Notes: generated from the letters alone by a model not told the origin. A DNA stretch of 64,000 nt from Candidatus Undinarchaeota archaeon (GCA_964519305.1 CAZFHY010000001.1:96001-160000), one strand, 5' to 3'. Positions 2,494-18,628 are shown, counted from the stretch's first letter. A program made the numbers and translations.

Positions 2494-3477
2494 ATGAGGC
2501 TCAGGAACAAGGCCAGAGCGGGATGGGCAATACTCAAGGCCCACCTCTTCGGCACCAAGACTCCTGTCTCGGTCGTGCTCATGAGCAACGACTCGTGCAA
2601 CCTCAAGTGCAAATACTGTGCCATCTGGAAGACCAAGCGACGTCAGATGACCACCAAGGAGCTCCTTGACCTCGTGGACGAACTGGCTGACATGGGTTGC
2701 GTTCGCATATCCATCTTCGGTGGCGAACCGCTCGTCCGTGATGACATCGGTCAGATCGTCGACCATATCCATAAGCGCGGTATCAACGTCGGTCTGGGTT
2801 CGAACGGGATCCTCGTTCCCAAGAAGATCGACCAGTTGAAGGATCTGGACCATCTTCATATCAGTCTGGACGGTCCCGAGGACTACCATGATATCCAGCG
2901 CGGAAAGGGGAGCCATGCCTCGGCCATCCGTGCCATCAAGGCCGGGAAGAAGGCAGGTCTCACCGTATGGACTATGACCGTGCTCACCAAGCACAACCTC
3001 CAAGTGGTCGACTACATGCTGGATCTTGCTGACGAGCATGACATGATCGCCTACTTCCATCCGGTCTCTCCGCGGGCAGACTCTGGACCCTATGTAAAGG
3101 ACCTCGTCCCGCCGCTCGATGCATATCGAGCCACGATCGAGCTCATCCTCAAGCGTAAGGCCGAGGGACGGAGGGTGGGTAACTCAACGACTGCCCTGAA
3201 CTACTTCCTGCACTTCCCCAAGCAGACGATGGACTTCAGGTGCTGGGCAGGCAAGCTGTTCTGTCACATCGATGCGAACGGCGATGTGTTCGGGTGCCTG
3301 GAGAACAAGGACAAGTCTCCGCCCAACAACCTCCTTGACAAGGGATTCCGCAAAGCGTGGGACGAGATCACGAGAGGACCATGCCCGGGATGTTGGAGCT
3401 ATTCCACGTCCGACTTCAACTTCCTGTTCTCCCTCGAGCCCCATGTCATCTGGAACACCATCAAGCTGACCCGTTGA
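2494..3477 (+). CDS. Radical SAM protein with Twitch/SPASM-like C-terminus
   Basis: CNLKCKYC, GGEP, ISLDG, CWAGKLFCHIDANGDVFGC...CPGC. Confidence 0.9.
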   Translation: MRLRNKARAGWAILKAHLFGTKTPVSVVLMSNDSCNLKCKYCAIWKTKRRQMTTKELLDLVDELADMGCVRISIFGGEPLVRDDIGQIVDHIHKRGINVGLGSNGILVPKKIDQLKDLDHLHISLDGPEDYHDIQRGKGSHASAIRAIKAGKKAGLTVWTMTVLTKHNLQVVDYMLDLADEHDMIAYFHPVSPRADSGPYVKDLVPPLDAYRATIELILKRKAEGRRVGNSTTALNYFLHFPKQTMDFRCWAGKLFCHIDANGDVFGCLENKDKSPPNNLLDKGFRKAWDEITRGPCPGCWSYSTSDFNFLFSLEPHVIWNTIKLTR

Positions 3478-7225: not shown

Positions 7226-7552
7226 ATGCCGAAGTTGACGTGCCCCGCCTGCGGGCACGGGTGCTGGGTGGAATCGAGACTGTTCACCATCGTCAAGTGC
7301 CCTCAGTGCGAGGACCCGTTCGTCGTTAGCGAACGGGATGGAGAGCTCGTGGCCCAACCGGCCTTGTGCACCGGGTGTGGAAAGGACACACACCCGGACC
7401 AACTTTCCCAGAGATGGGACTCAGGGTACGGCTGGGGCCTCTTGTGCCAAGAATGTCAGGAGGAATGGGACCGGGAGTTCCCGACAATGACACTTGAGGG
7501 CGCTGTCGCCCGGTTGCGAGAGGATAACGGGCTACCGAAATGGAGGGCGTGA
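7226..7552 (+). CDS. Small double zinc-ribbon protein
   Basis: Four CxxC pairs (CPAC, CPQC, CTGC, CQEC); TTTAATAT about 25 nt upstream. Confidence 0.65.
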   Translation: MPKLTCPACGHGCWVESRLFTIVKCPQCEDPFVVSERDGELVAQPALCTGCGKDTHPDQLSQRWDSGYGWGLLCQECQEEWDREFPTMTLEGAVARLREDNGLPKWRA

Positions 7553-9876
7553 TGCCCCTGCGCGTTCACCGCGCACGAACGGTCGTGCTCGTCCTCCTCG
7601 TGTTGCTCGGGTGCGGTGCTGCGATCTCAGTGGACGGTACCTCCGAGGAATGGGACCATTCGAAGGCCGTGCAGGACCCTGCTGATGACACGCTCCTGGA
7701 CGTCCCAGGCCTCGACATAAGCTCGTTCTCCGTAGAGGTCGACAACGATACGGTCTACCTGATGGTCGGTACATGGTACCCGCTCCGTTCCGATGACCTC
7801 CTCCTAGAGCTAACTCTGGGGGATATGGTGTTGAACATTGACGGAAAAGGAGCGCGGTGGTGGCGGGACGGGACGGACTACCCGCCGGTCTGGATCGAGG
7901 AGGCCCAGGTGGCCTTCGACGAGGTCATCGAGCTGTCCATCCCTCGCTCGAAGGTACGGGGCGACCCGTTACATATCGAGCGCCTGAACCTCTGGGTCTC
8001 GGGTGACACCAGCGCGGCGGACGTGGCGGATGCCTGTCCCTTGAGTTTCGGAGAGCACCAAATCGCTCCCGTCCTCGCCGGGGTACATCAGGTCGACGGG
8101 CTCGCCAGCGAGTGGGGTGCGCCAATAGCACGTGACAGGGAGGGCGATGCTCCCGGACCGGACAGGGACATCTCTGCGATATACCTCGAGGTAGAGGGGG
8201 AGGACCTACATCTCGCCATGTCCACTGCAGGTGACAGTGTGCCGCTCAACGCCATGTTGGAGCTCACGCTCGGGGACGCAATCCTCAACATCGATCGAGA
8301 GGGAGTGCGTTGGTACGACAAGGGTACCGAGTTCCCGCCGCGGAAGCTCGAGGGGGCCGCGGTCGCCCTCGGCGAGCTGTTCGAGGTGAAGCTACCGATC
8401 GAGCACGTCCTCATAGGTGATGTGGTATACATCGAGCGCCTGAACCTCTGGACGGAGGGGCGTCCTGACGATCAGGGTGATTTCGCTCCATTGGCGTTCA
8501 ACACGACGACCAACACCATAGCCGATCCCGTCGCCTCCCTTTCCGTCGATATAAGACACGGAAAAGGCACCCATCTGGAGGTCAAGCTGACCGTCGAGGG
8601 TGCCGATGGCTTTGTGGACATGGGGTTCTTTCGTGGCACCTGCCCATTCGTCCGGCAACCGGCGGGAGGACGCGCTCGGGGCCGTGGGACATGTGGGTTC
8701 AGGATCACCCTCCCCTCCGCGCCCGTGTATTACACGGTCGACCTTGAGACCATTCAAGGGAGCGATCCGTTCGCACGGCTCGCTAACGATGTATGGGTCA
8801 TCCCGCTAGCGGTGCTGCTACCAGAAGTACGCAACGCCCGGATCTCCGAGGTGTCCCTGCACTTCGACCTACCGGATGGTTGGAACGCCGTTGCACCGAT
8901 GGTCCAGAACGAACCGGGGGTCTTTTTCGCACAGGGATTGCCGTTCACGGAGGTGCGGATGCTACGTGTCCTGCTCGGTCGGTTCGAGCGCTTGGACGAC
9001 AGGATAGAGGATGTGAGCTTCTCCCTCTTCCACGCAGGTATCCCTGCCGAACGCGTCAAGCTGTCCGTGGAGCGTATCAAGCGATACCTCCCCTATTGTC
9101 AGAAGGTGTTCGGTGAGTGGCCGGGTGGTGACCTCTCCGTTGTCGTCATCGGTCCACGCGATCCCTCATCAGGTTTCTGCCACGGGGTGGTCGAAGGTGG
9201 TATGGTGGTCGTCGACGCGCGACAACAGTGCAACGAGGAGGCTCACGAGGTCGTCCATCTCTGGATGATGGGCTCCATCCGCATCGCATCTCTCAAGGAC
9301 CGATGGCTCGGCGAAGGTGTGGCAGAGTACTATGGCCTCAAGACACGGCTGATGACCGATGAGTGGGACGAAGCGAGATTTCTCAGTGAACTGCGCGAGC
9401 GTGCAGCCCAGCCGCCAGGTTGGTACGTGGACCTCGTGAACGCCGGTGAACGGAGCGAGACCGATCCCCAGGCCGTCCAGGCCCTCTATGCAAAAGGTGC
9501 ACTTGCCATCTACCTGCTAGATAAGGAGATGGTCGAAAAGACGGGGGATGTGCGTGGGCTCGACCTCCTCATGCAGCGCCTGTACAATGAGTATGGACGA
9601 ACCGGACGGGCGGTCACGACGAGCGATGTCATCGAAGAGGCATCGTCCATAGTGGGCGAGGACCTAGGGCCGTTCATCCGGGCCCTGCTCGACGGCACAG
9701 CGCCGATCCCGGAAGAGCTAACTCCCTCCCTGGCAGCCGTGAAGGCCGATCCTAGTGACGAGAGGTGCGAGATAGAGCTGGCCCGACTCCAGAGGCGGGA
9801 ACGTTCGCTGCTCGTACTGCTCGCCCTACTCGCAGTATTCGCACTTCGGAGAGGCCGACAGGTGAGCGAGGACTAG
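7540..9876 (+). CDS. Secreted, C-terminally anchored gluzincin metallopeptidase (M1/M61-like) with two tandem N-terminal beta domains
   Basis: Signal peptide; HEVVH plus WLGEGVAEY; YAKGAL; internal duplication (LELTLGD...NID..G.RW...GT.[YF]PP...IERLNLW twice); C-terminal TM. Confidence 0.8.
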   Translation: MEGVMPLRVHRARTVVLVLLVLLGCGAAISVDGTSEEWDHSKAVQDPADDTLLDVPGLDISSFSVEVDNDTVYLMVGTWYPLRSDDLLLELTLGDMVLNIDGKGARWWRDGTDYPPVWIEEAQVAFDEVIELSIPRSKVRGDPLHIERLNLWVSGDTSAADVADACPLSFGEHQIAPVLAGVHQVDGLASEWGAPIARDREGDAPGPDRDISAIYLEVEGEDLHLAMSTAGDSVPLNAMLELTLGDAILNIDREGVRWYDKGTEFPPRKLEGAAVALGELFEVKLPIEHVLIGDVVYIERLNLWTEGRPDDQGDFAPLAFNTTTNTIADPVASLSVDIRHGKGTHLEVKLTVEGADGFVDMGFFRGTCPFVRQPAGGRARGRGTCGFRITLPSAPVYYTVDLETIQGSDPFARLANDVWVIPLAVLLPEVRNARISEVSLHFDLPDGWNAVAPMVQNEPGVFFAQGLPFTEVRMLRVLLGRFERLDDRIEDVSFSLFHAGIPAERVKLSVERIKRYLPYCQKVFGEWPGGDLSVVVIGPRDPSSGFCHGVVEGGMVVVDARQQCNEEAHEVVHLWMMGSIRIASLKDRWLGEGVAEYYGLKTRLMTDEWDEARFLSELRERAAQPPGWYVDLVNAGERSETDPQAVQALYAKGALAIYLLDKEMVEKTGDVRGLDLLMQRLYNEYGRTGRAVTTSDVIEEASSIVGEDLGPFIRALLDGTAPIPEELTPSLAAVKADPSDERCEIELARLQRRERSLLVLLALLAVFALRRGRQVSED

Positions 9877-10796
9877 AGAAGTGTATCGCGGGACACAGGC
9901 GTGCCCTGGACCGGGATGAGCTCGTCCGTACCGAAACGCTCGGCGTATTCGCGCCACACGCCTTCACAGATCAGGTTGTACCTGCACACATGACATTGCG
10001 GCCCCTTACGCTTGTCATCCTCTCTGCGTGACCGCCTGTACTCACGCTCCACACGCCCAGGCTCACGCACCTCGCACGAGGCCATATGCAGCTCGATGGC
10101 CTGTTGCTTATGGTCCGGCATGAGACAGTAGGGTATGGCTTCATAGAAGGCAGGGATCCCCGCAGAGGTGGTCACGTCCAGGGCCTCGGCCACGTACCTG
10201 GCCGCCTGGGATATGACTGGGACTATGGTGTCCGCTTCGACTTCAGCGTTGCCCATGGGATGGACGAAGTCGAACTGCATGGAGTCCGGCCCGAATTCGA
10301 TAAGGAACCTCGCGATGTCAGGGAGCACTGCATAGTTCGGTTTCGCGACCACCGTATTGGTGATGACGGTCAGCGGGGCATCGCACACGTTACGCAGCCC
10401 CGCGATGGCCTGGTCAAAAGCGCCCGGCGATTTGGTGAGGTGATCATGGAGCGCGGCCACGTGCCCATGGACGGCCGGTACAACCTGGGTGAGGCCCGCG
10501 GCAACAAGGTCGTTCACGAGGTCACGATAACTGAGCATCCGGGCATTCGTCTGGAGCTGGACATCGCGATAGCCTAGACGATGCGCCATGGTGATTATGT
10601 CGACAAGTTTGGGGTCAAGGGTGGGCTCGCCACCCGTGATCACGAGGAAGTCGGCACCATCAGCTCGACCTGCGCGAAGGTCACCCTCAACATCTGTTAG
10701 GTTCTTGGACCTGCGGCCCCGCTTGTCAGCTACAGCACAGAAGCGGCAGTTATTGTTACAGCTGTAGCCCAATTTTAGGTCTAAACGATGCACCAT
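9873..10796 (-). CDS. HxsC-like radical SAM protein (paralog 1)
   Basis: LDLKLGYSCNNNCRFC, TGGEPT, QTN, PYC, CHVCRYNLICEGVWREY..FG; directly downstream of the HxS-repeat peptide. Confidence 0.85.
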   Translation of the reverse strand: MVHRLDLKLGYSCNNNCRFCAVADKRGRRSKNLTDVEGDLRAGRADGADFLVITGGEPTLDPKLVDIITMAHRLGYRDVQLQTNARMLSYRDLVNDLVAAGLTQVVPAVHGHVAALHDHLTKSPGAFDQAIAGLRNVCDAPLTVITNTVVAKPNYAVLPDIARFLIEFGPDSMQFDFVHPMGNAEVEADTIVPVISQAARYVAEALDVTTSAGIPAFYEAIPYCLMPDHKQQAIELHMASCEVREPGRVEREYRRSRREDDKRKGPQCHVCRYNLICEGVWREYAERFGTDELIPVQGTPVSRDTLL

Positions 10797-10821
10797 CTGT
10801 CGCTACTAGTCCCCGTCCGGC

Positions 10822-11160
10822 TTAATGGCTGTTGCAGTGAGACCCGTGCGAGGTATGGCTGTCGTGGTTCGAGTGGGCAGGGTCGTAGTGGGAGTGCACA
10901 GCCTTTATGGTCGAACCGGAGTAGTGGATTCCCGCAGCGCTCTGAGAGTGATCGTACGGGTTGTTGGTATGCGACGCATGTGAACTGTGGCTGCCATGGC
11001 TCGTATGCCAACTTGTCGCTGGTTTGGCTATGAGGCTGGAGAACGCATAGCCCGACAGGATGGCCCCCATGGAAAACAGATTTCTCTTTGTGATCCTGCC
11101 CTCCTCCTCTACGAGGAAGGACTTGATGCTTTTCTGAATCTTTGGTAGTGTCTTTGTCAT
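10822..11160 (-). CDS. hxsA: His-Xaa-Ser repeat precursor peptide (HxsA-like)
   Basis: HTSHGSHSSHASHTN and HSNHDSHTSHGSHCNSH blocks after a basic/hydrophobic leader; GGAGTGA SD upstream. Confidence 0.88.
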   Translation of the reverse strand: MTKTLPKIQKSIKSFLVEEEGRITKRNLFSMGAILSGYAFSSLIAKPATSWHTSHGSHSSHASHTNNPYDHSQSAAGIHYSGSTIKAVHSHYDPAHSNHDSHTSHGSHCNSH

Positions 11161-11165
11161 CGTTG

Positions 11166-11223
11166 ATCACTCCAGCTAGTACTCACTCTCTGTTACATAC
11201 TATAGATTAGCTAGCTTATAAAC
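11166..11223 (-). promoter_or_regulatory. Own TATA box and SD for hxsA
   Basis: Minus-strand TTTATAAG at about 11223-11216; GGAGTGAT at 11173-11166. Confidence 0.55.
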
Positions 11224-11256
11224 CTATCGTCGGCTTAAAAGGCATCCGGTACCCCT

Positions 11257-12684
11257 TTAGTCAAGCGTTCTCGCCCATTCGAGAAGGATCGAGCGGTCCT
11301 TTGGATCCACGATGATTTTATGGAATAGGTGCTCAACGAGCCCGCCCCGTATCGCGCATTCCTTATCCATGGGGAGCTTGGACACCAGATTCCCTTGGGA
11401 ACCATAGGTGCAAACGGCACACGAGCCGCAATAGGGGTGCCAGATACAGGTGTCGCACATGGTGCATACATGGGATGTCAGCCCCACGAGGTGTTGGACC
11501 TGAGGTGAGGTGAACACTCCCTTGTAAGTATCATCCCGCACATTGCCGATGCGGAATATATCGAAGGAACGTGATTCATCACATGCGTAGATATCGCCGT
11601 CCTGGGTATAGGCCACCTGGTTGAGGGCCGCACCGCAGGGTGAACCGAAGCACGTGTACGTAGAGGCTTTCAAGCACAGGATCTTACGCAGAACGATCGT
11701 GGCCATGTTCTCATGCATGCGCACGCCCTGTCGGTTGAGGTCGATTATGTACTCGAGCGTGTCCTTGTAGAAGCGCATGAACTCGTCGGCGGAGTAGCCC
11801 ACCTCTTTCCATCGCTCGGCTGCGAACCCTGCGTCATTGAGCTGGCGGATCCGGATGTTGGGGAAGCCCCATTTCACGTACTCGTCGACGATCTCCTTTC
11901 CGTACGAAAGGGAGTGCTTCGAGATGGTCGGAAGAGCTGAGAGGCCTACATGCTTGATGTTGCGGATGCGGTTGATCCAGTAGGTGACATTCTCGTATGA
12001 ACCAGCGCCACCAAAGTACCGTCGGTTCGCGTCGTGGACCTCCTCGGGCCCGTCCAGTGATGTGCAAAGGCCGAACCTGTTGGAGGCAAGATAGTCGAGC
12101 TTGTCGTCCGTCATCAGGGAGAGGTTGGTGACCATGAGGAAGGTCATCCGCTTCTTCTTGAGATGGGCCTGGTCCTTGGCGTACTCGGTTATGTAGTGGA
12201 CCATGTCGAACGCCGCCAGAGGCTCACCCCCCTGGAACTCGAGTGTAAGGTCCCGGCCAGGAGACTGCATGATGAAGTCCACCGTAGCACGGGCGGTCTC
12301 CTCGTCCATGTCCACGCCTGTCGTATCCATGGGGCGGGATTTCGCATGACAATAGACACAGGTGAAGTTGCACCGCAGGGTGGGGACCACTATGTGGAGC
12401 ACGACGCCACGGTCGAGGTGGGCGAAGCGACTGCGATATTGCTCTGCCAGTCCGTCCATGTCATCTTCATGCACCATGACACCGATACCACGGAGCGTGA
12501 GCATCAGGTTCGGGTCCTCGGTGATGCGGCCTAGTCGAAGGAGATCGTACTCACGCTTGGTAAGAACCGCCCACGAACCATGATCCGCGGTGATCAGGTA
12601 CTTGTCCTTCGCCAAACGCTTCGTCTGATAGCGGTTGATGAGGTGCGGTCCCTCGCTGAGTCCCTCAAAGAAGGTCTCTACCAT
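11257..12684 (-). CDS. hxsB: His-Xaa-Ser system radical SAM maturase HxsB (SPASM)
   Basis: LHIVVPTLRCNFTCVYCHA, EFQGGEPL, SLDGP..HD.NR, SPCGAALNQVAY..DGDIYACDESR, CDTCIWHPYCGSCAVC. Confidence 0.9.
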   Translation of the reverse strand: MVETFFEGLSEGPHLINRYQTKRLAKDKYLITADHGSWAVLTKREYDLLRLGRITEDPNLMLTLRGIGVMVHEDDMDGLAEQYRSRFAHLDRGVVLHIVVPTLRCNFTCVYCHAKSRPMDTTGVDMDEETARATVDFIMQSPGRDLTLEFQGGEPLAAFDMVHYITEYAKDQAHLKKKRMTFLMVTNLSLMTDDKLDYLASNRFGLCTSLDGPEEVHDANRRYFGGAGSYENVTYWINRIRNIKHVGLSALPTISKHSLSYGKEIVDEYVKWGFPNIRIRQLNDAGFAAERWKEVGYSADEFMRFYKDTLEYIIDLNRQGVRMHENMATIVLRKILCLKASTYTCFGSPCGAALNQVAYTQDGDIYACDESRSFDIFRIGNVRDDTYKGVFTSPQVQHLVGLTSHVCTMCDTCIWHPYCGSCAVCTYGSQGNLVSKLPMDKECAIRGGLVEHLFHKIIVDPKDRSILLEWARTLD

Positions 12685-12688
12685 GCAT

Positions 12689-12931
12689 CTACGCCTTCAT
12701 GATGCCGAGCACGTAGTTCAGGAACTCATAACCGAGCTGGTTGATCCTGATCTTCTTGCTCCGTGGAGTGAGGGTCACTCGCACGAGGCCTTCAGCATCT
12801 CCATCAACGTACACCCAGCAGGTCTCGAGATAGGCCTGGGAGGCCTGCATTACCGCGTCCATCGGATAGAAACGGGTATCAAGGTCGAGCACGACGGTCC
12901 TGAGATCCTTATCGACAGTGACGATCTTCAT
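12689..12931 (-). CDS. hxsD: HxsD-like small protein (copy 2)
   Basis: LDTRFYPMDAVMQASQAYL...EFLNYVL pattern; directly upstream of hxsB. Confidence 0.75.
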   Translation of the reverse strand: MKIVTVDKDLRTVVLDLDTRFYPMDAVMQASQAYLETCWVYVDGDAEGLVRVTLTPRSKKIRINQLGYEFLNYVLGIMKA

Positions 12932-12934
12932 GCG

Positions 12935-13420
12935 CTACTCCTCCGTTCCGCTCCAGGGCTTGGCGATCCCTTCAGGATCATCCCTGTACGAGGAGTCTCC
13001 CTCTGATGGAGGGCACCCGCACGGATCGGCGCCGGAGTCGGCGCTCTCGCTGGTCAGGAATGCGCGGCGCACGATGGCGTCCCGCACGTCCTGGTTCCGC
13101 GCTGTCTGGATCGTGTAGACCGCGTAGTTGATGAGCTCGTTGTTGAACTCTCTACCGAGCTTCTCGAGGCTCTCCCGCTTGCTCTTCGGCCGGATCTCCA
13201 CAAGGACCTCTTCCTGCGGATCACCGCCGAGGATCAGGTACGCCCTGTCCATGAGGACATAGGCTGCTGAGTAGATGATCTGGAGCGGATAGATCCGGGG
13301 ATTCACGGATACGAGTATATACCCCTCCTTTTTGTGAATCTCGAGATTATTGATCACGCTAAAACCCTCGTTCGGGTCTTTCTTCGATTCTGGTTTTTTC
13401 TTCGTCGCACGCTTAGCCAT
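12935..13420 (-). CDS. hxsD: HxsD-like protein (copy 1) with C-terminal extension (start refined to MAKRAT)
   Basis: VNPRIYPLQIIYSAAYVLMDRAY...REFNNELINY...RDAIVRRAF; tail DDPEGIAKPW. Confidence 0.8.
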   Translation of the reverse strand: MAKRATKKKPESKKDPNEGFSVINNLEIHKKEGYILVSVNPRIYPLQIIYSAAYVLMDRAYLILGGDPQEEVLVEIRPKSKRESLEKLGREFNNELINYAVYTIQTARNQDVRDAIVRRAFLTSESADSGADPCGCPPSEGDSSYRDDPEGIAKPWSGTEE

Positions 13421-13440
13421 GGAACGCACCCCGGAAGGCC

Positions 13441-13483
13441 GGAAGGCCTTGCAAAGCTTTAATAGTTTGCGCTCGGCCTTTCC
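13441..13483. promoter_or_regulatory. Bidirectional promoter with dyad symmetry between the two arms of the hxs locus
   Basis: GGAAGGCC..GCAAA-GCTTTAATAG-TTTGC..GGCCTTTCC; TATA-like on both strands (TTTAATA on +, TATTAAA on -). Confidence 0.55.
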
Positions 13484-13530
13484 CATTGCCTGCTCTTCCT
13501 ATGCTGGCCTCTCGTTTGGATGTTTTGGCG

Positions 13531-14463
13531 ATGGGGATCAAGAGACTTGATTTGAAGGTTGGATTCGCCTGTAACAACAACTGCCGGTTCTGTGTCGTCG
13601 CCGACAAGCGGAGGCTCGGGAACCTGAGCACAGGACAGCTCAAGGAGAACATCGTTAACGGCGCCCGCTCGGGTGCCAAGGAGATCGTCTTCACTGGTGG
13701 TGAGGTCACCCTCCGCAAGGACCTTCTGGAACTCATCCGGTTCGCCAAGAACCAAGGTTTCACAAGGCTCCAGCTCCAGTCGAACTGTAGGATGCTGTTC
13801 TACAAGGATTTCATCCACAAGCTCCTTGACGCCGGTATCAATGAGTTCTCCCCTTCGATCCATGGATCGACCCCCGAGGTGCATGATGGTCTAGTTCGCG
13901 CTCCCGGCGCATACAAGCAGACGCTGGGCGCCATCCGTAACCTCGTCGACATGGACCTCCGAGTACTCACGAACACGGTCATCACACGTCAGAACTACGA
14001 GCAGCTGCCCCAGATTGCCCAGATACTCATCGATATCGGTGTCATGCAGTACCAGTTCGCCTTCGTACATGCGGAGGGGAACGCCTACAAGTACTTTGAC
14101 GAGATAGTCCCCCGGAAGTCGGTGATACAGCCCTATGTCCACAAGGGCGTGGATCTGGGAGCGGAGTCCGGTACATCGATGATGGTAGAGGCCTACCCGT
14201 TCTGCTTCATGGTGGATCGGGAGCAGTACTGCTCTGAGCTATTCATCCCCGAGACCGAGGTCCGCGAGGCCGATCGCGTTCTTGAGAACTTCAGTGATGT
14301 CCGTCGGAACGTCGCCAAGCTCAAAGGCCCGGACTGTCCTCGATGCAGATACTACCCTATCTGCGAAGGACCATGGAAGGAGTATCCCGAGAAATTCGGA
14401 TGGGAAGAGTTCGTGCCAGTGCCCGGTCAGCCCATCACCGATCGGCTAGAACTGCTCCACTGA
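13531..14463 (+). CDS. HxsC-like radical SAM protein (paralog 2; start refined to MGIKRLDL)
   Basis: LDLKVGFACNNNCRFC, FTGGE, YPFC, CPRCRYYPICEGPWKEY..FG. Confidence 0.88.
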   Translation: MGIKRLDLKVGFACNNNCRFCVVADKRRLGNLSTGQLKENIVNGARSGAKEIVFTGGEVTLRKDLLELIRFAKNQGFTRLQLQSNCRMLFYKDFIHKLLDAGINEFSPSIHGSTPEVHDGLVRAPGAYKQTLGAIRNLVDMDLRVLTNTVITRQNYEQLPQIAQILIDIGVMQYQFAFVHAEGNAYKYFDEIVPRKSVIQPYVHKGVDLGAESGTSMMVEAYPFCFMVDREQYCSELFIPETEVREADRVLENFSDVRRNVAKLKGPDCPRCRYYPICEGPWKEYPEKFGWEEFVPVPGQPITDRLELLH

Positions 14464-14472
14464 GGGGCCATC

Positions 14473-15441
14473 ATGGCGACCCACCTTTTACGGCTAGGCC
14501 ATTCCTGTGACCACGCATGCCGCTATTGCACCGTGGCGGACGATCCCGATCCAGAGCTCTCCCGGGAGGATGCGCTGGCCCGCGTCGATGCAGTGCCCAA
14601 GGGCGAGGGATTGACCATCACCGGTGGAGAACCTACTCTGCACCCCGACCTACTGGAGATAGTCCGGCGGGCGAAGGAGCGGGGACTCTTCCCCGTTGAC
14701 CTCCAGACGCACGGAGCGCACCTGTGCGATGCATCCCTGGTGGAGCGTCTACAGGAAGCGGGGCTCGATATAGCCCTTGTGTCCGTACCGTCACATGAGA
14801 AGAAGGTCTATCACGAGCTCACCGGCAAGGACGACCTTGACAAAGTACTGGCCGGTATCAGCGCGCTCCTGGAGGTCGGTATCGAGACGAACATAGACCA
14901 CGTCATCACAGCACGCACTTACCGTTCCCTCCCGGACTTCGTAGACGTCATCGGCAAGCGATTCCCGGGGGTCAACCGTATCCTCCTTGGGATGGTGCGG
15001 CCCAATGGAGCATGCGCCCGGCATCCCGAGCTGGTTCCCCGTCTGGTAGAGCTGGAACCTTTCCTGTATGATGCGCTGGACCGCCTTCGGAACAGGCGCG
15101 CGTACTACGAGGTGGAAGGTGTGCCCTTGTGCTATCTTCAGGGATACGAGCATCATAACGCTGAGACGCAGCGCGCCCTTGACGCCCCTGTTTCCTACGC
15201 TGGAGGTAAGCGGCGGCGCGATATCCACGGATTCGTGCATTCCCAGTTGAAACGCAAAGCGGCCGTATGTGAGCGCTGCCTTCTGGACCCGCTCTGTGTA
15301 GGGGTGTGGGTGGAGTATGCCCAGCTCAACGGGACGAACGAACTGTTCCCGGTGTTCACTCCACCGGACCGTGTGCGTGAACGGATGGAACGGTACTATC
15401 AGCGATGGAGGGAGGAGTATCGTAGACGTAGGTCTAGGTAA
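14473..15441 (+). CDS. HxsC-like radical SAM protein (paralog 3)
   Basis: CDHACRYC, TGGEPT, VPLC, CERCLLDPLCVGVWVEY. Confidence 0.85.
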   Translation: MATHLLRLGHSCDHACRYCTVADDPDPELSREDALARVDAVPKGEGLTITGGEPTLHPDLLEIVRRAKERGLFPVDLQTHGAHLCDASLVERLQEAGLDIALVSVPSHEKKVYHELTGKDDLDKVLAGISALLEVGIETNIDHVITARTYRSLPDFVDVIGKRFPGVNRILLGMVRPNGACARHPELVPRLVELEPFLYDALDRLRNRRAYYEVEGVPLCYLQGYEHHNAETQRALDAPVSYAGGKRRRDIHGFVHSQLKRKAAVCERCLLDPLCVGVWVEYAQLNGTNELFPVFTPPDRVRERMERYYQRWREEYRRRRSR

Positions 15442-16258
15442 CGCATGCAACAACTCGTGCGTCATGTGCACTTCCATCATGCCGCCTCCTAAGGACGTGG
15501 ATCCCACCACCGAGCAGATCAAAGCCCATATCAATGGGCTCGATGAGCCGGACATCATCATCTTCACCGGCGGCGAACCGACCCTCCGCCCCGACCTCGA
15601 GGAACTCGTCCGATATGTACGCCAGCGGTTCCCGGACACTCCGTTCAGGCTCCTCACGAACGGTCGGATGTTCTCCTATCGTGACTACACAGAAAGGATG
15701 GTATCGGCTGGAGTCGATGACGTCGAAGTATCGCTCTGCGGACCCTCCGCCGAGGTGCACGATGCAGTGACCCGCGCACCAGGCTCTTTCATCCAGTCGC
15801 TCGAAGGCATCCGGAACCTCGTGTCGGCAGGAGTGCATACGAACGTGCGCTACGTGCTCCATGAGCTCACCTACAAGAGCGTGGTCGACGTCCCGGACCT
15901 TCTGGACAGGGAAGCGCCGGGCATAGGGCAGCTGGTCGTCATGTATATGGACATAATCGGTAACGCCCTGCGCCACCGGAAGCAGCTCATCGTCCCGTAC
16001 AGGGATGTCGCACCCTACGTGGAGCGCACCGCTGATGTCGCTGTCGAACGGGGGATATCACTGGCCTTGTACCATATACCGTCCTGTGTCATCGCCCCTG
16101 CCTACCGTCATCTCTCAGCGGGCGTCACCGTCATCGAGCGACGCATCACCTATCCACCCCAATGCGAGCGATGTACCGTCCGAAGCTCGTGCTGTGGTGT
16201 GTGGAAGACCTATACCAAGGACGTGGGCGTAGATGAGTTCGTCCCGGTCATCGAATGA
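15377..16258 (+). CDS. hxsC: HxsC-like radical SAM protein (paralog 4; start uncertain, GTG at 15371 or 15377)
   Basis: CNNSCVMC, FTGGEPT, LLTNGRMF, IPSCV, CERCTVRSSCCGVWKTY. Confidence 0.85.
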   Translation: MNGWNGTISDGGRSIVDVGLGNACNNSCVMCTSIMPPPKDVDPTTEQIKAHINGLDEPDIIIFTGGEPTLRPDLEELVRYVRQRFPDTPFRLLTNGRMFSYRDYTERMVSAGVDDVEVSLCGPSAEVHDAVTRAPGSFIQSLEGIRNLVSAGVHTNVRYVLHELTYKSVVDVPDLLDREAPGIGQLVVMYMDIIGNALRHRKQLIVPYRDVAPYVERTADVAVERGISLALYHIPSCVIAPAYRHLSAGVTVIERRITYPPQCERCTVRSSCCGVWKTYTKDVGVDEFVPVIE

Positions 16259-16270
16259 TATGACCGCTGT

Positions 16271-18628
16271 CTAGAGGCCCTCATCACCGAATATGTCCGC
16301 ATCCTCTTCTTCCTTGTCGGATGAGGTCTCGTCAGCGGTTTCCTTCGTCCCCTCATCCCCCGCCCCGGGGGCTGCCGGGTAGCGGCCTGCCGACGGGTAG
16401 CGGCCCGCGTAGGCGTCCTTTGGACCGGCCTCTTTATCCCCTCGGTGGTAATGGGCCGGTCGCGCCATCTTGGCACGAGCGTAGTAGCCCGCTTCCTCCT
16501 CCGAGCTCTCGTCCTTGAAGTGGTCCACCAACTCGCTGATTAGTCCGGTGATCATCTCCTTCTTCTCACCGAACACGGTCACATAGATCACACCAAGCCC
16601 CAGGTCCATGCGCACCCAGATGCCCAGGAACTTCTTGGAGTAGGCGCCCATCCCCGAGTAGATCAGGTCCACGGATCGCTTCTCCTTGTTCACCAGCTGC
16701 TTGACCGTGTGGATGCCTGAGAACCGCTCCGCGATACGCTTGATCGCCTCCTTGGGAGGGATGGTGAGCTCGATGGTCTGCTGGTTCGACTCAAGCTCGG
16801 TGATCCTCTTCTTGAACGTTATGGTGTCCATCGGCACACCTACGAGGAACGGACACACGCTCCCCACGTTTATTGGATCGAACTCCTCCATCTTACGCTC
16901 TCCGCGGTTGTCATGGTAGACGACAGTACCACCGATCTTGGCGTTAACGCACCGGTGTGGGATGAGCAGGAAGATGGCCGACTGGAACTCATCCGGTTTG
17001 ATGGCCCCTAGAGAGATTAGCTTCGAGCCGTGCTCCACCTCGAAGGCCTCCGGTACGTCGAGGTTCACATCCACGTCGGTTATGGAGAAGGTGGAATGGT
17101 TATGTACCTTGATGCCGATCTTGATGTGGTTACCCTCACGTGTGACACCCCGCATGATATCGACCTCCTCGTGACCGATCACACGCTTCTTGGCGAACTG
17201 GAGGCCTAGGTAGATAATACCCATGAGACCGAATATGTCGATCCACTCAGTAACGGCATCGAGCATGTTCAGGTCGAGCTTCTCCTCCATGTTACCGATC
17301 TCCACCTCGGCAAGGTTCATGTCGCTCTGGGCCTTGCATTCCTTCATGATGGTCTCGATCTTCGTCATGGAGGCGTTGAACCGTAAGGCGTCGTCGTCAG
17401 TGACGCGGAACATCACTCGCCAGACACTGCTCTTGAGGTTCGTGTCGTACATCTGGAGAACGTTGTAATACCGGTCCTTCAGCTCGACCGGTACGGTGCA
17501 GTCCTCCGAGGAGATGAGCTTGCGAACGGCTTCCAGCTCGTCAGGATTGCTGGCCACCTCGGTGGAATTACCATAGAAGAGCCTGACGTTCTTGAGCACG
17601 GGTGTGCAGAACCCATCCGAGGAGAAGAGGGCCTTGTACTGTATCCAGCGGTCGCCGATGTGGAGGCTGTTCACCCCGGAGGGCGATATCGTGTAGTGGT
17701 CTGTATTCTTATCGGGACCGAGCCACGTCGCATCCTCCAGCTCTATCTCGGTACGCGCGCTCCGGGTCTGGAGATTGATCGTGCACGGTGAGGGCGTATC
17801 CTTATCCCACGAAATCGTGGTGTAGACCGCGTCGGGCATCCCAGTATCGAACGGAGGTGACAGGAGCGTTCCCTGATTGATCCGCTTCATCTGCTTTCCA
17901 CTTGCGATATGTAAGGTCTTCATATAGAGCTTCGCAGGTCGCTCACGGGTACCGGTAGTAGATATCCTGATCGAGTTGACCTGGCTGCCGCTTTGCGTCC
18001 CCCGCAGTGCGTCACCGTGGGAAAGGAGTCGGATACCATCGCGGTAGACATTGAAGCTGGCCGAGACACCGACGAACATGATTCGCCATGTATGGTAGTT
18101 CTCCGTATCGGTCTTGCCCTCCCACTGACGGAAGCGCCGGTCCTGATTGTCAACCATGTCGATACCACTTCCATGGAACACGAAGCATGGACCACGGACC
18201 ACGGCATGGACGCAGATCCTCAGACCGCCCTGTTCTTCCATCCTGAACGTGGTCTCCAGGGTCCAATCGCTCTTGTCGGGTATGGACTCTGACCTGACGA
18301 TCATCGGATTTACCTTATCATTGCCATCATAGATGAACAATGTACCAGGTGGATCGACATCGATCACGGCCTTGACGTCATGCTGGTTCCGCTCCCATCC
18401 ATCCAGTGAAGGCCAGTTCGTGGAAAAAATGTTCCAGAGGGGGGTTTCGAAGTCAAGACGCACGGAGCCGTCAGGACCGGGAGTTGTCACATTGGAACGC
18501 GTGGTCAACAGGAAGTCATCGAGTGTATCAGTGTTCCAGATCCTGCCGGAGGCCATGGTGAGGGCTAGGAATAGAACGAGCACGATCCATCGTGCAGGGA
18601 GCCTGCTCGGGAGAATTCCCTCTACCAC
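16271..18628 (-). CDS. Single-pass membrane protein: extracellular beta-sandwich/lectin-like region, helical stalk, TM, conserved cytoplasmic Ig-like plus alpha/beta domain
   Basis: Signal peptide; YHTWRI lectin-like strand; TM IFGLMGIIYLGL; C-terminal domain is homologous to that of ORF 49854-51203. Confidence 0.75.
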   Translation of the reverse strand: MVEGILPSRLPARWIVLVLFLALTMASGRIWNTDTLDDFLLTTRSNVTTPGPDGSVRLDFETPLWNIFSTNWPSLDGWERNQHDVKAVIDVDPPGTLFIYDGNDKVNPMIVRSESIPDKSDWTLETTFRMEEQGGLRICVHAVVRGPCFVFHGSGIDMVDNQDRRFRQWEGKTDTENYHTWRIMFVGVSASFNVYRDGIRLLSHGDALRGTQSGSQVNSIRISTTGTRERPAKLYMKTLHIASGKQMKRINQGTLLSPPFDTGMPDAVYTTISWDKDTPSPCTINLQTRSARTEIELEDATWLGPDKNTDHYTISPSGVNSLHIGDRWIQYKALFSSDGFCTPVLKNVRLFYGNSTEVASNPDELEAVRKLISSEDCTVPVELKDRYYNVLQMYDTNLKSSVWRVMFRVTDDDALRFNASMTKIETIMKECKAQSDMNLAEVEIGNMEEKLDLNMLDAVTEWIDIFGLMGIIYLGLQFAKKRVIGHEEVDIMRGVTREGNHIKIGIKVHNHSTFSITDVDVNLDVPEAFEVEHGSKLISLGAIKPDEFQSAIFLLIPHRCVNAKIGGTVVYHDNRGERKMEEFDPINVGSVCPFLVGVPMDTITFKKRITELESNQQTIELTIPPKEAIKRIAERFSGIHTVKQLVNKEKRSVDLIYSGMGAYSKKFLGIWVRMDLGLGVIYVTVFGEKKEMITGLISELVDHFKDESSEEEAGYYARAKMARPAHYHRGDKEAGPKDAYAGRYPSAGRYPAAPGAGDEGTKETADETSSDKEEEDADIFGDEGL

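Follow-up and report, generated by a model that had tools for sequence, protein, structure and literature searches.

We analyzed an eight-gene locus related to the bacterial His-Xaa-Ser (HXS) system, located at positions 9873–16258 of a 64 000-nt stretch of DNA (hereafter, the window) from the genome of a Candidatus Undinarchaeota archaeon (GCA_964519305.1, CAZFHY010000001.1:96001-160000). In the list of open reading frames (ORFs), the eight genes form two divergent operon-like arms, with five genes on the minus strand and three on the plus strand. Outward from the intergenic spacer, the minus arm encodes the small protein HxsD (D1; 12935–13420, approximately 161 amino acids (aa) when counted from M23), an HxsD-like small protein (D2; 12689–12931, 80 aa), the radical S-adenosylmethionine (SAM)/SPASM maturase HxsB (11257–12684, 475 aa), an HxsA-like protein that is the putative substrate (10822–11160, 112 aa) and the HxsC-type radical SAM enzyme C4a (9873–10796, 307 aa), with gaps of 3, 4, 96 and 25 nt between them. 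The plus arm encodes three further HxsC-type radical SAM enzymes, namely Cp1 (13531–14463, 310 aa), Cp2 (14473–15441, 322 aa), which represents a third subfamily, and Cp3 (15422–16258, approximately 278 aa), the closest counterpart of canonical HxsC. Cp1 and Cp2 are separated by 9 nt, and Cp2 and Cp3 overlap. A preliminary description of this DNA had proposed the same gene content and arm order, and all eight genes were present at the expected positions in the ORF list.

The 183-aa D1 ORF reaches position 13486; its start is probably M23 (13420), since in the sister genome (Candidatus Undinarchaeales archaeon) the frame is broken upstream by a 1-nt indel. The Cp1 ORF also opens at 13486, and comparison with homologues and the sister genome suggests that translation begins at the conserved ATG at 13531. 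By the same comparison, the Cp3 start is likely the GTG at 15422, which overlaps the end of Cp2, in an ORF that opens at 15317. Between the D1 and Cp1 starts lies a divergent spacer of approximately 110 nt (13421–13530), containing an AT-rich, TATA-like element at approximately 13455–13470 (GCTTTAATAGTTT) with the same sequence in the sister genome. It is plausible that a single putative divergent promoter is shared by both arms.

Family assignment of the encoded proteins

We compared the encoded proteins with curated hidden Markov models of the Hxs families, and the family matches were far beyond chance. HxsB exceeded the TIGR03978 cut-off (424.7 bits versus 370, E = 4.3e-127) and was the sole such match in the genome, and D2 exceeded the cut-off of the HxsD-like model NF038315 (43.2 versus 41 bits). 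The Hxs assignment made in the preliminary description thus held above the curated thresholds for these two proteins, whereas HxsA, HxsD and the HxsC-type enzymes were best matches below them: D1 scored 48.5 bits against the HxsD model TIGR03976 (cut-off 50, 1.5 bits short), the HxsA-like protein 49.8 bits against the HxsA3 model NF038309 (cut-off 65) and Cp3 177.8 bits against the HxsC model TIGR03977, its best match (cut-off 267.9). C4a, Cp1 and Cp2 scored 66–91 bits against TIGR03977. The best match of both C4a (181 bits) and Cp1 (177 bits) was NF038332, the model of the ‘rare’ HxsC4, which has a cut-off of 500, and the NCBIfam scores of Cp2 were ambiguous (MoaA, 75 bits; HxsC4, 74 bits; HxsC, 66 bits). 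The TIGR03977 cut-off was reached by no genome of the phylum to which the window belongs, and the 12 HxsC-type proteins scanned from related loci (among 18 proteins overall) all fell short of the HxsC4 cut-off.

The Pfam domain Radical_SAM was detected in all five enzymes (75.6 bits for Cp2), with SPASM additionally present in HxsB, and the Pfam scan returned no domain for the three small proteins D1, D2 and HxsA. HxsB shared 32.8% identity over 461 aa with the annotated HxsB of an Aeromonas plasmid. When the annotated HxsC of the Aeromonas plasmid was compared using BLASTP, Cp3 was the best of the four paralogues (100 bits, 25.7% over 265 aa), followed by C4a (58.5 bits), Cp2 (51.2 bits) and Cp1 (33.9 bits). 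Among solved structures, none was close to the HxsC-type enzymes, the best match being the radical SAM core of BlsE (79 bits).

The repeat protein, the HxsD proteins and the HxsC-type enzymes

The HxsA-like protein contains 15 His among its 112 residues and eight HxS triplets, which form clusters at residues 52–63 and 99–107. Seven Lys or Arg residues occur among the first 26 positions, the leader has the form LPKIxKxIKSFLxEEEGxIxK, a moderately hydrophobic segment (residues 27–45) follows the leader and a Cys is located four residues before the C-terminus. The leader aligned with those of 21 homologues from DPANN, candidate phyla radiation (CPR) and other bacterial loci, with repeat number as the main difference (3–27 HxS/T triplets per homologue). 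In the resulting 22-sequence alignment, K25 is invariant and a conserved leader precedes a variable repeat core; all 22 proteins matched the HxsA3 model, and 18 matched HxsA4 (NF038313). The repeats of the window protein contain neither Arg nor Lys, and the protein has no peptidoglycan-binding domain.

The conserved leader and variable core are also compatible with a ribosomally synthesized and post-translationally modified peptide (RiPP), in line with the RiPP-like reading of the preliminary description. In such a natural product, the leader would be cleaved and a heavily cross-linked His-rich core released as a small secreted peptide, for example a metallophore. His-rich repeats are plausible metal ligands, and the nearest characterised relatives of HxsB are RiPP maturases (PapB, 156.8 bits; SCIFF maturase, 123 bits; CteB structure 5wgg, 93.9 bits). 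However, no leader protease or exporter was found inside the arms or conserved with the cluster, an A24 peptidase being present in three loci only, and the hydrophobic segment after the HxsA leader is arranged as in exported or anchored proteins. Furthermore, the bacterial HxsA product is described in the main text of a recent Escherichia coli study as a processed protein effector and not a small peptide (Li et al., Nat Commun 2026, PMC13128918). Taken together, these points make a released RiPP product quite improbable. We also considered the formation of Cys thioethers by HxsB with the C-terminal Cys of HxsA, and dropped this idea because the bacterial HxsA examined, that of Aeromonas, contains no Cys.

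In an alignment of 23 homologues, members of the D1 family carry, after the HxsD domain, an acidic tail that terminates in DPEGIAxPW. Tandem D1–D2 pairs were also found in seven other loci (L036, L042, L043, L071, L072, L094 and L097). HxsD from three of three Nanohaloarchaeota loci carries a fused ferredoxin domain with a single cluster at its C-terminus (Fer4_13, 49–55 bits; L058:13528-14208, L082:3601-4314 and L098:5793-6647), an arrangement that would fit HxsD working directly at the radical SAM enzymes. The AlphaFold2 model of D1 (pLDDT 81.7) is a small α/β sandwich for which the fold search returned no convincing structural relative: the best Foldseek match had an E-value of 0.014, to RNA polymerase subunit chains of the Rpb11 type, and the best VIA-align Z-score was 7.3, in the range rated common, with no match listed to RiPP recognition element (RRE)/PqqD-like folds. 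A weak resemblance to type III secretion chaperones (Z of approximately 6) was not distinctive. The predicted complex of Cp1 with HxsD (score 0.11, mark 0.32) was evidence for neither side.

We next consider the relationships among the four HxsC-type enzymes, for which 96 HxsC-type proteins, all from loci with HxsB, were placed in a tree by a quick method, with approximate likelihood ratio (SH-aLRT) values as the only support. Cp1 was placed within a 36-row clade (SH-aLRT 96), of which C4a, sharing 43% identity with Cp1, formed a long basal branch sister to the other 35 rows (SH-aLRT 96); we refer to this clade as HxsC4-like. Cp2 belonged to a 19-row clade (SH-aLRT 99) including orthologues from class relatives, Micrarchaeota and Parcubacteria. 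Cp3 fell in a 15-row group (support 90), whose members include HxsC from L027, an archaeal system of just four genes, and the HxsC-like gene found in Candidatus Fermentimicrarchaeum limneticum. Judged by this tree, the four extra radical SAM enzymes are three old subfamilies kept across phyla and not recent copies. The four HxsC-like paralogues counted in the preliminary description would suggest a local expansion, but the tree gives three ancient subfamilies.

In an alignment of the four paralogues with two reference sequences, the CxxxCxxC motif, GGE and the residues C224, C268, C271 and C277 were invariant, and the C-terminal Cys motif of the HxsC-type enzymes takes the form PxC and CxxCx5C-G-x-W. 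The retention of these motifs and of the four extra Cys suggests that all four paralogues are probably active and carry an auxiliary cluster.

Distribution and co-occurrence of the cassette

The eight genes are syntenic in the sister genome, with 89–97% amino-acid identity. In class relatives with genomes of 0.6–0.9 Mb, genes for HxsD, often a second HxsD-like protein, HxsB, an HxsA-like protein and several radical SAM enzymes are clustered. The HxsA-like proteins of these relatives have the same leader type, 11–21 HxS/T repeats and a Cys-bearing tail, and their radical SAM enzymes include a further SPASM enzyme, orthologues of Cp1 (43–47% identity) and Cp2 (29–34%) and an enzyme of approximately 500 aa. 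A similar string is present in the complete genome of Fermentimicrarchaeum limneticum, where HxsD, HxsD-like protein, HxsB (378.4 bits), HxsA, a SPASM radical SAM enzyme, four HxsC4-like genes and one HxsC-like gene (209 bits) occur together. Beyond these genomes, the arrangement occurs again in several other DPANN phyla and in some bacteria. Directly upstream of HxsD, the class relatives with small genomes carry a gene for a type IV leader peptidase (L026:9094-9795, Pfam A24, 29.4 bits; L022:6458-7135; and L023:6883-7419, the last by its similar N-terminus only). An A24 prepilin-type peptidase was rejected as a core partner, the phmmer single-sequence search having found it in three loci only.

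A search of species-representative genomes with the Cp1 alignment yielded 463 confirmed stretches. Locus counts refer to the best 80 of these, which were fetched with Cp1 itself and assigned to taxa by record title. They comprised 47 archaeal stretches (30 DPANN-named) and 33 bacterial ones (Elusimicrobia, 7; CPR, 5; Myxococcota or ‘delta’, 10; and others), a tally that is biased because the best 80 are the top matches to an archaeal query. HxsB (at least 250 bits) was present in 29 of the 80 loci, an HxsD-type gene in 24, at least three HxsC-type genes in 31 and an HxS-repeat ORF in 18. For the 27 loci flanked by 8 kb or more on either side, the corresponding counts were 13, 10, 14 and 12. 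Related loci hold from one to seven HxsC-type genes; accordingly, the 1:1:2:4 architecture proposed earlier is one state of a variable ratio. At E ≤ 1e-20, Cp1 has 875 related proteins, and all matches listed carry generic names. The Cp1-type family is thus large and yet bears no specific name.

Within the window's phylum, HxsB was detected at E ≤ 1e-30 in 10 of 17 representative genomes and as a fragment in one further genome, G013, and the Cp1 family at E ≤ 1e-40 was likewise detected in 10 of 17; no genome contained Cp1 without HxsB. In G015, HxsB lies on a 1.6-kb contig and Cp1 was not detected. Neither gene was found in five genomes from two other families (84–94% complete) or in one genome that is 72% complete, and HxsB is retained by 9 of the 10 genomes of one family with sizes of 0.6–0.9 Mb. 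We examined as an independent sample 101 genomes from the phylum containing locus L038 (Candidatus Iainarchaeum). HxsB matches at E ≤ 1e-30 were found in 23 of them, 20 strong (at least 324 bits) and three weak (approximately 105 bits). The Cp1 family (E ≤ 1e-80) was present in 14 genomes, all among the 20 with strong HxsB matches, and in 13 of these 14 the two genes lay within 7 kb of each other; the co-occurrence counts are from related genomes, which are not independent samples. Overall, the distribution is patchy: the cassette is common in one small-genome family, occurs in approximately one-fifth of the genomes of another phylum and was not found in two sister families.

These counts bear on the possibility that the plus-arm enzymes, possibly along with C4a, adjoin the cassette but act on another substrate, for example in cofactor or lipid modification outside the Hxs pathway. 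Cp1 does occur in the absence of HxsB: on an Aenigmatarchaeota chromosome (complete, 1.05 Mb), in 14 of the 27 fully flanked loci, where HxsB was not found within 10 kb, and in the window's own genome, which contains four more Cp1-like genes on three other contigs (L111, G000:C4:157000-173000; L112, G000:C16:9000-25000; L113, G000:C5:1-10000; 204–347 bits against the Cp1 profile), none of them near HxsA, HxsB or HxsD. In addition, Cp2 scores almost equally against MoaA and HxsC4. Against this, every Cp1-positive genome of the independent sample (14 of 14) has HxsB, mostly adjacent; genes of the Cp1, Cp2 and Cp3 types occur in one string with HxsD, HxsB and HxsA in L043, L067, L036, L071 and L097; and the four paralogues share the HxsC-specific C-terminal Cys motif with the HxsC of the four-gene system. 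The association of the plus-arm radical SAM enzymes with hxsAB, on which the preliminary description depended, is therefore upheld in related genomes, and a separate substrate for these enzymes is very unlikely.

Two further observations concern the Cp1 family. One of the extra Cp1-like genes adjoins a gene for a membrane protein with an A24-peptidase-like SYTDIREGKIRN motif. Seven genomes (G042, G069, G079, G091, G094, G126 and G144) yielded Cp1-profile matches (280–308 bits) with one internal stop (TAA, TAG and TGA mixed), which may reflect alignments overrunning the gene end or broken copies.

The locus is flanked by genes for two large proteins of 778 aa (7540–9876, plus strand) and 785 aa (16271–18628, minus strand), each with a hydrophobic N-terminus. 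Neither matched a Pfam family, and among the loci compared both were matched in the sister genome only; they were rejected as parts of the cassette on these grounds. Approximately 6.4 kb upstream of the locus, a radical SAM/SPASM-like gene (2494–3477, plus strand, 327 aa) scored 103 bits against the mycofactocin maturase model and 100 bits against WgkB, both far below the cut-offs.

The genome containing the window measures 3.63 Mb in 42 contigs (99.83% complete, 4.29% contamination). Its archaeal origin is indicated by three TATA-binding protein genes and a full-length match to the archaeal small-subunit ribosomal RNA model (1508 bits), and no RpoD-type sigma factor was found in it. Other representatives of the class and phylum have genomes of 0.6–1.2 Mb, with the exception of the sister genome (3.8 Mb), and a large-genome lineage among reduced DPANN-type genomes is unusual. 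A large genome in this placement could reflect placement or binning problems. Among public sequencing runs, none of RNA was listed for the locus, and eight DNA runs from two marine studies may be its source.

A proposed maturation pathway and its relation to known systems

We propose that the locus encodes a cassette for the stepwise maturation of an HxS-repeat protein that is exported or anchored in the membrane, and that this cassette is an expanded and divergent relative of the HXS system; we assign this reading a probability of roughly 0.68. In such a pathway, the hydrophobic segment of HxsA would serve as a signal or membrane anchor, leaving the His-Xaa-Ser repeats facing outward, and the repeats would undergo a series of covalent modifications prior to or in the course of export. 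The modifying enzymes would be HxsB, of the SPASM type, and the four HxsC-type radical SAM enzymes of three subfamilies, with the four extra Cys of each HxsC-type enzyme as probable ligands of an auxiliary Fe-S cluster. The two HxsD-type proteins may serve as adaptors, either docking on the enzymes or presenting the substrate, and the spacer between the arms probably drives their joint expression. The gene content, the homologies, the retained catalytic motifs, the conserved layout and the co-occurrence are observations, whereas the action of all five enzymes on HxsA, its topology and the adaptor role of HxsD are inferred.

Several points weigh against this proposal. Only HxsB and the HxsD-like protein clear the curated NCBIfam cut-offs, the genomes in which co-occurrence was counted are related to one another, and Cp1 is found without HxsB in the complete Aenigmatarchaeota chromosome, in about half of the fully flanked loci and elsewhere in the window's own genome.

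With regard to end function, HXS in E. coli blocks phage DNA entry through HxsA matured by radical SAM enzymes, according to the main text of PMC13128918. By analogy, the cassette may block the entry of viral DNA at the envelope, with roughly one chance in three, and a metal-binding or cell-contact role at the surface is about as likely. The E. coli function is not safely transferable because the peptidoglycan anchor and the basic repeat residues that underlie the DNA-binding model are absent here; the lack of both in HxsA counts against the defence variant of our proposal. The defence reading is further weakened by the surroundings of the locus, since PADLOC identified no known defence genes among 17 neighbours. 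For these neighbours and the eight cassette proteins, it returned only generic radical SAM, viperin-like or partial-domain matches, from a 2023 release that predates the description of HXS.

The same maturation machinery could alternatively serve tiny episymbiotic cells at their surface, for instance in host contact or metal capture, and not in antiviral defence. This would accord with the 30 DPANN-named and 5 CPR-named loci among the best 80 Cp1 loci, with the retention of HxsB throughout most of the 0.6–0.9 Mb family, with repeats devoid of basic residues and with the absence of a defence-island context in the window. However, the taxon tally is biased by its archaeal query, the window's own genome (3.6 Mb) is not reduced, and the patchy occurrence elsewhere (approximately 20 of 101 genomes in another DPANN phylum and none of five in two other families) gives the cassette an accessory look. 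In our estimation, this alternative is unlikely. A broader proposal treats the DPANN/CPR-type cassette, consisting of HxsB, two HxsD-type adaptors, at least three HxsC subfamilies and a leader-bearing (His-Xaa-Ser)n protein, as a pathway in its own right that is ancient and has been shared horizontally. Its product would be a His/Ser polymer with multiple cross-links, built at the surface of ultra-small cells by chemistry well beyond the single +8 Da change of E. coli, for a role (host contact, metal capture or nucleic-acid gating) other than bacterial antiphage defence. We regard this as speculative, with the odds clearly against it.

Returning to the maturation cassette, its precedent in E. 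coli is described in some detail. The main text of PMC13128918 reports that HxsB, HxsC and HxsD are all required for HxsA processing, that HxsC pulls down HxsD and that a +8 Da change maps to an SHRSS motif. The same text states that in vitro reconstitution failed and that 99.7% of HXS systems occur in Pseudomonadota, more than 99.8% having four genes and 99.6% the order D-B-C-A. The preliminary description, which knew of no solved product for Hxs, is outdated in this respect, the system now having an experimentally assigned role and a mapped modification in bacteria. The word ‘archaea’ does not appear in the main text of that paper, and a 2022 JBC paper, in the part that concerns these proteins, mentions HxsB and HxsC merely as annotated clusters (PMC9062424). 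A literature search covering sources other than subscription journals and supplements found a single study of the system, together with its preprint, but no paper on an archaeal or multi-HxsC Hxs system and none using the names HxsA3, HxsA4 or HxsC4. A wholly undescribed system, as had been suggested, is nevertheless too strong a term, because NCBIfam already holds the variant models HxsA3, HxsA4, HxsC4 and HxsD-like. The HxsA3, HxsC4 and HxsD-like models are the best matches of HxsA, of C4a and Cp1, and of D2, respectively, and the leader type is common to all 22 HxsA-like proteins; however, only the HxsD-like model was passed here, and the HxsC4 and HxsA3 cut-offs were missed.

HxsB shares the radical SAM plus SPASM architecture of PapB, SCIFF/CteB and anSME. 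These enzymes make Cys thioether links or oxidise Cys or Ser, whereas the HxsA of Aeromonas contains no Cys. The resemblance to bacterial HXS (TIGR03976–TIGR03978) extends to four components, namely an HxsB-type SPASM enzyme, here above the family cut-off, an HxsC-type radical SAM enzyme carrying a second Cys cluster, a small HxsD protein with a motif of the N-E-L-x-N-Y type, and a substrate with an N-terminal export-like region and tandem HxS repeats. In contrast to the bacterial system with its two radical SAM enzymes, the archaeal locus has five, together with two HxsD-type proteins, and its eight genes are arranged in two divergent arms and not in the canonical D-B-C-A order seen on the Aeromonas plasmid. 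The HxsC-type enzymes here are approximately 280–310 aa long; relative to the 401-aa bacterial HxsC, an N-terminal part of ~110 residues is missing. Similarly, Aeromonas HxsA is a 192-aa protein with a classical signal peptide, HRSHRS-type repeats and PG_binding_1, whereas the 112-aa window protein has neither PG_binding_1 nor Arg in its repeats.

Five enzymes and a short, domain-free substrate offer a simpler substrate and separable enzyme steps for studying HXS chemistry. The variant extends the HXS kind to archaea and provides a concrete, recurring gene cluster for DPANN biology. Relative to the HXS plan, it adds two HxsC-type subfamilies and one more putative HxsD-type adaptor.

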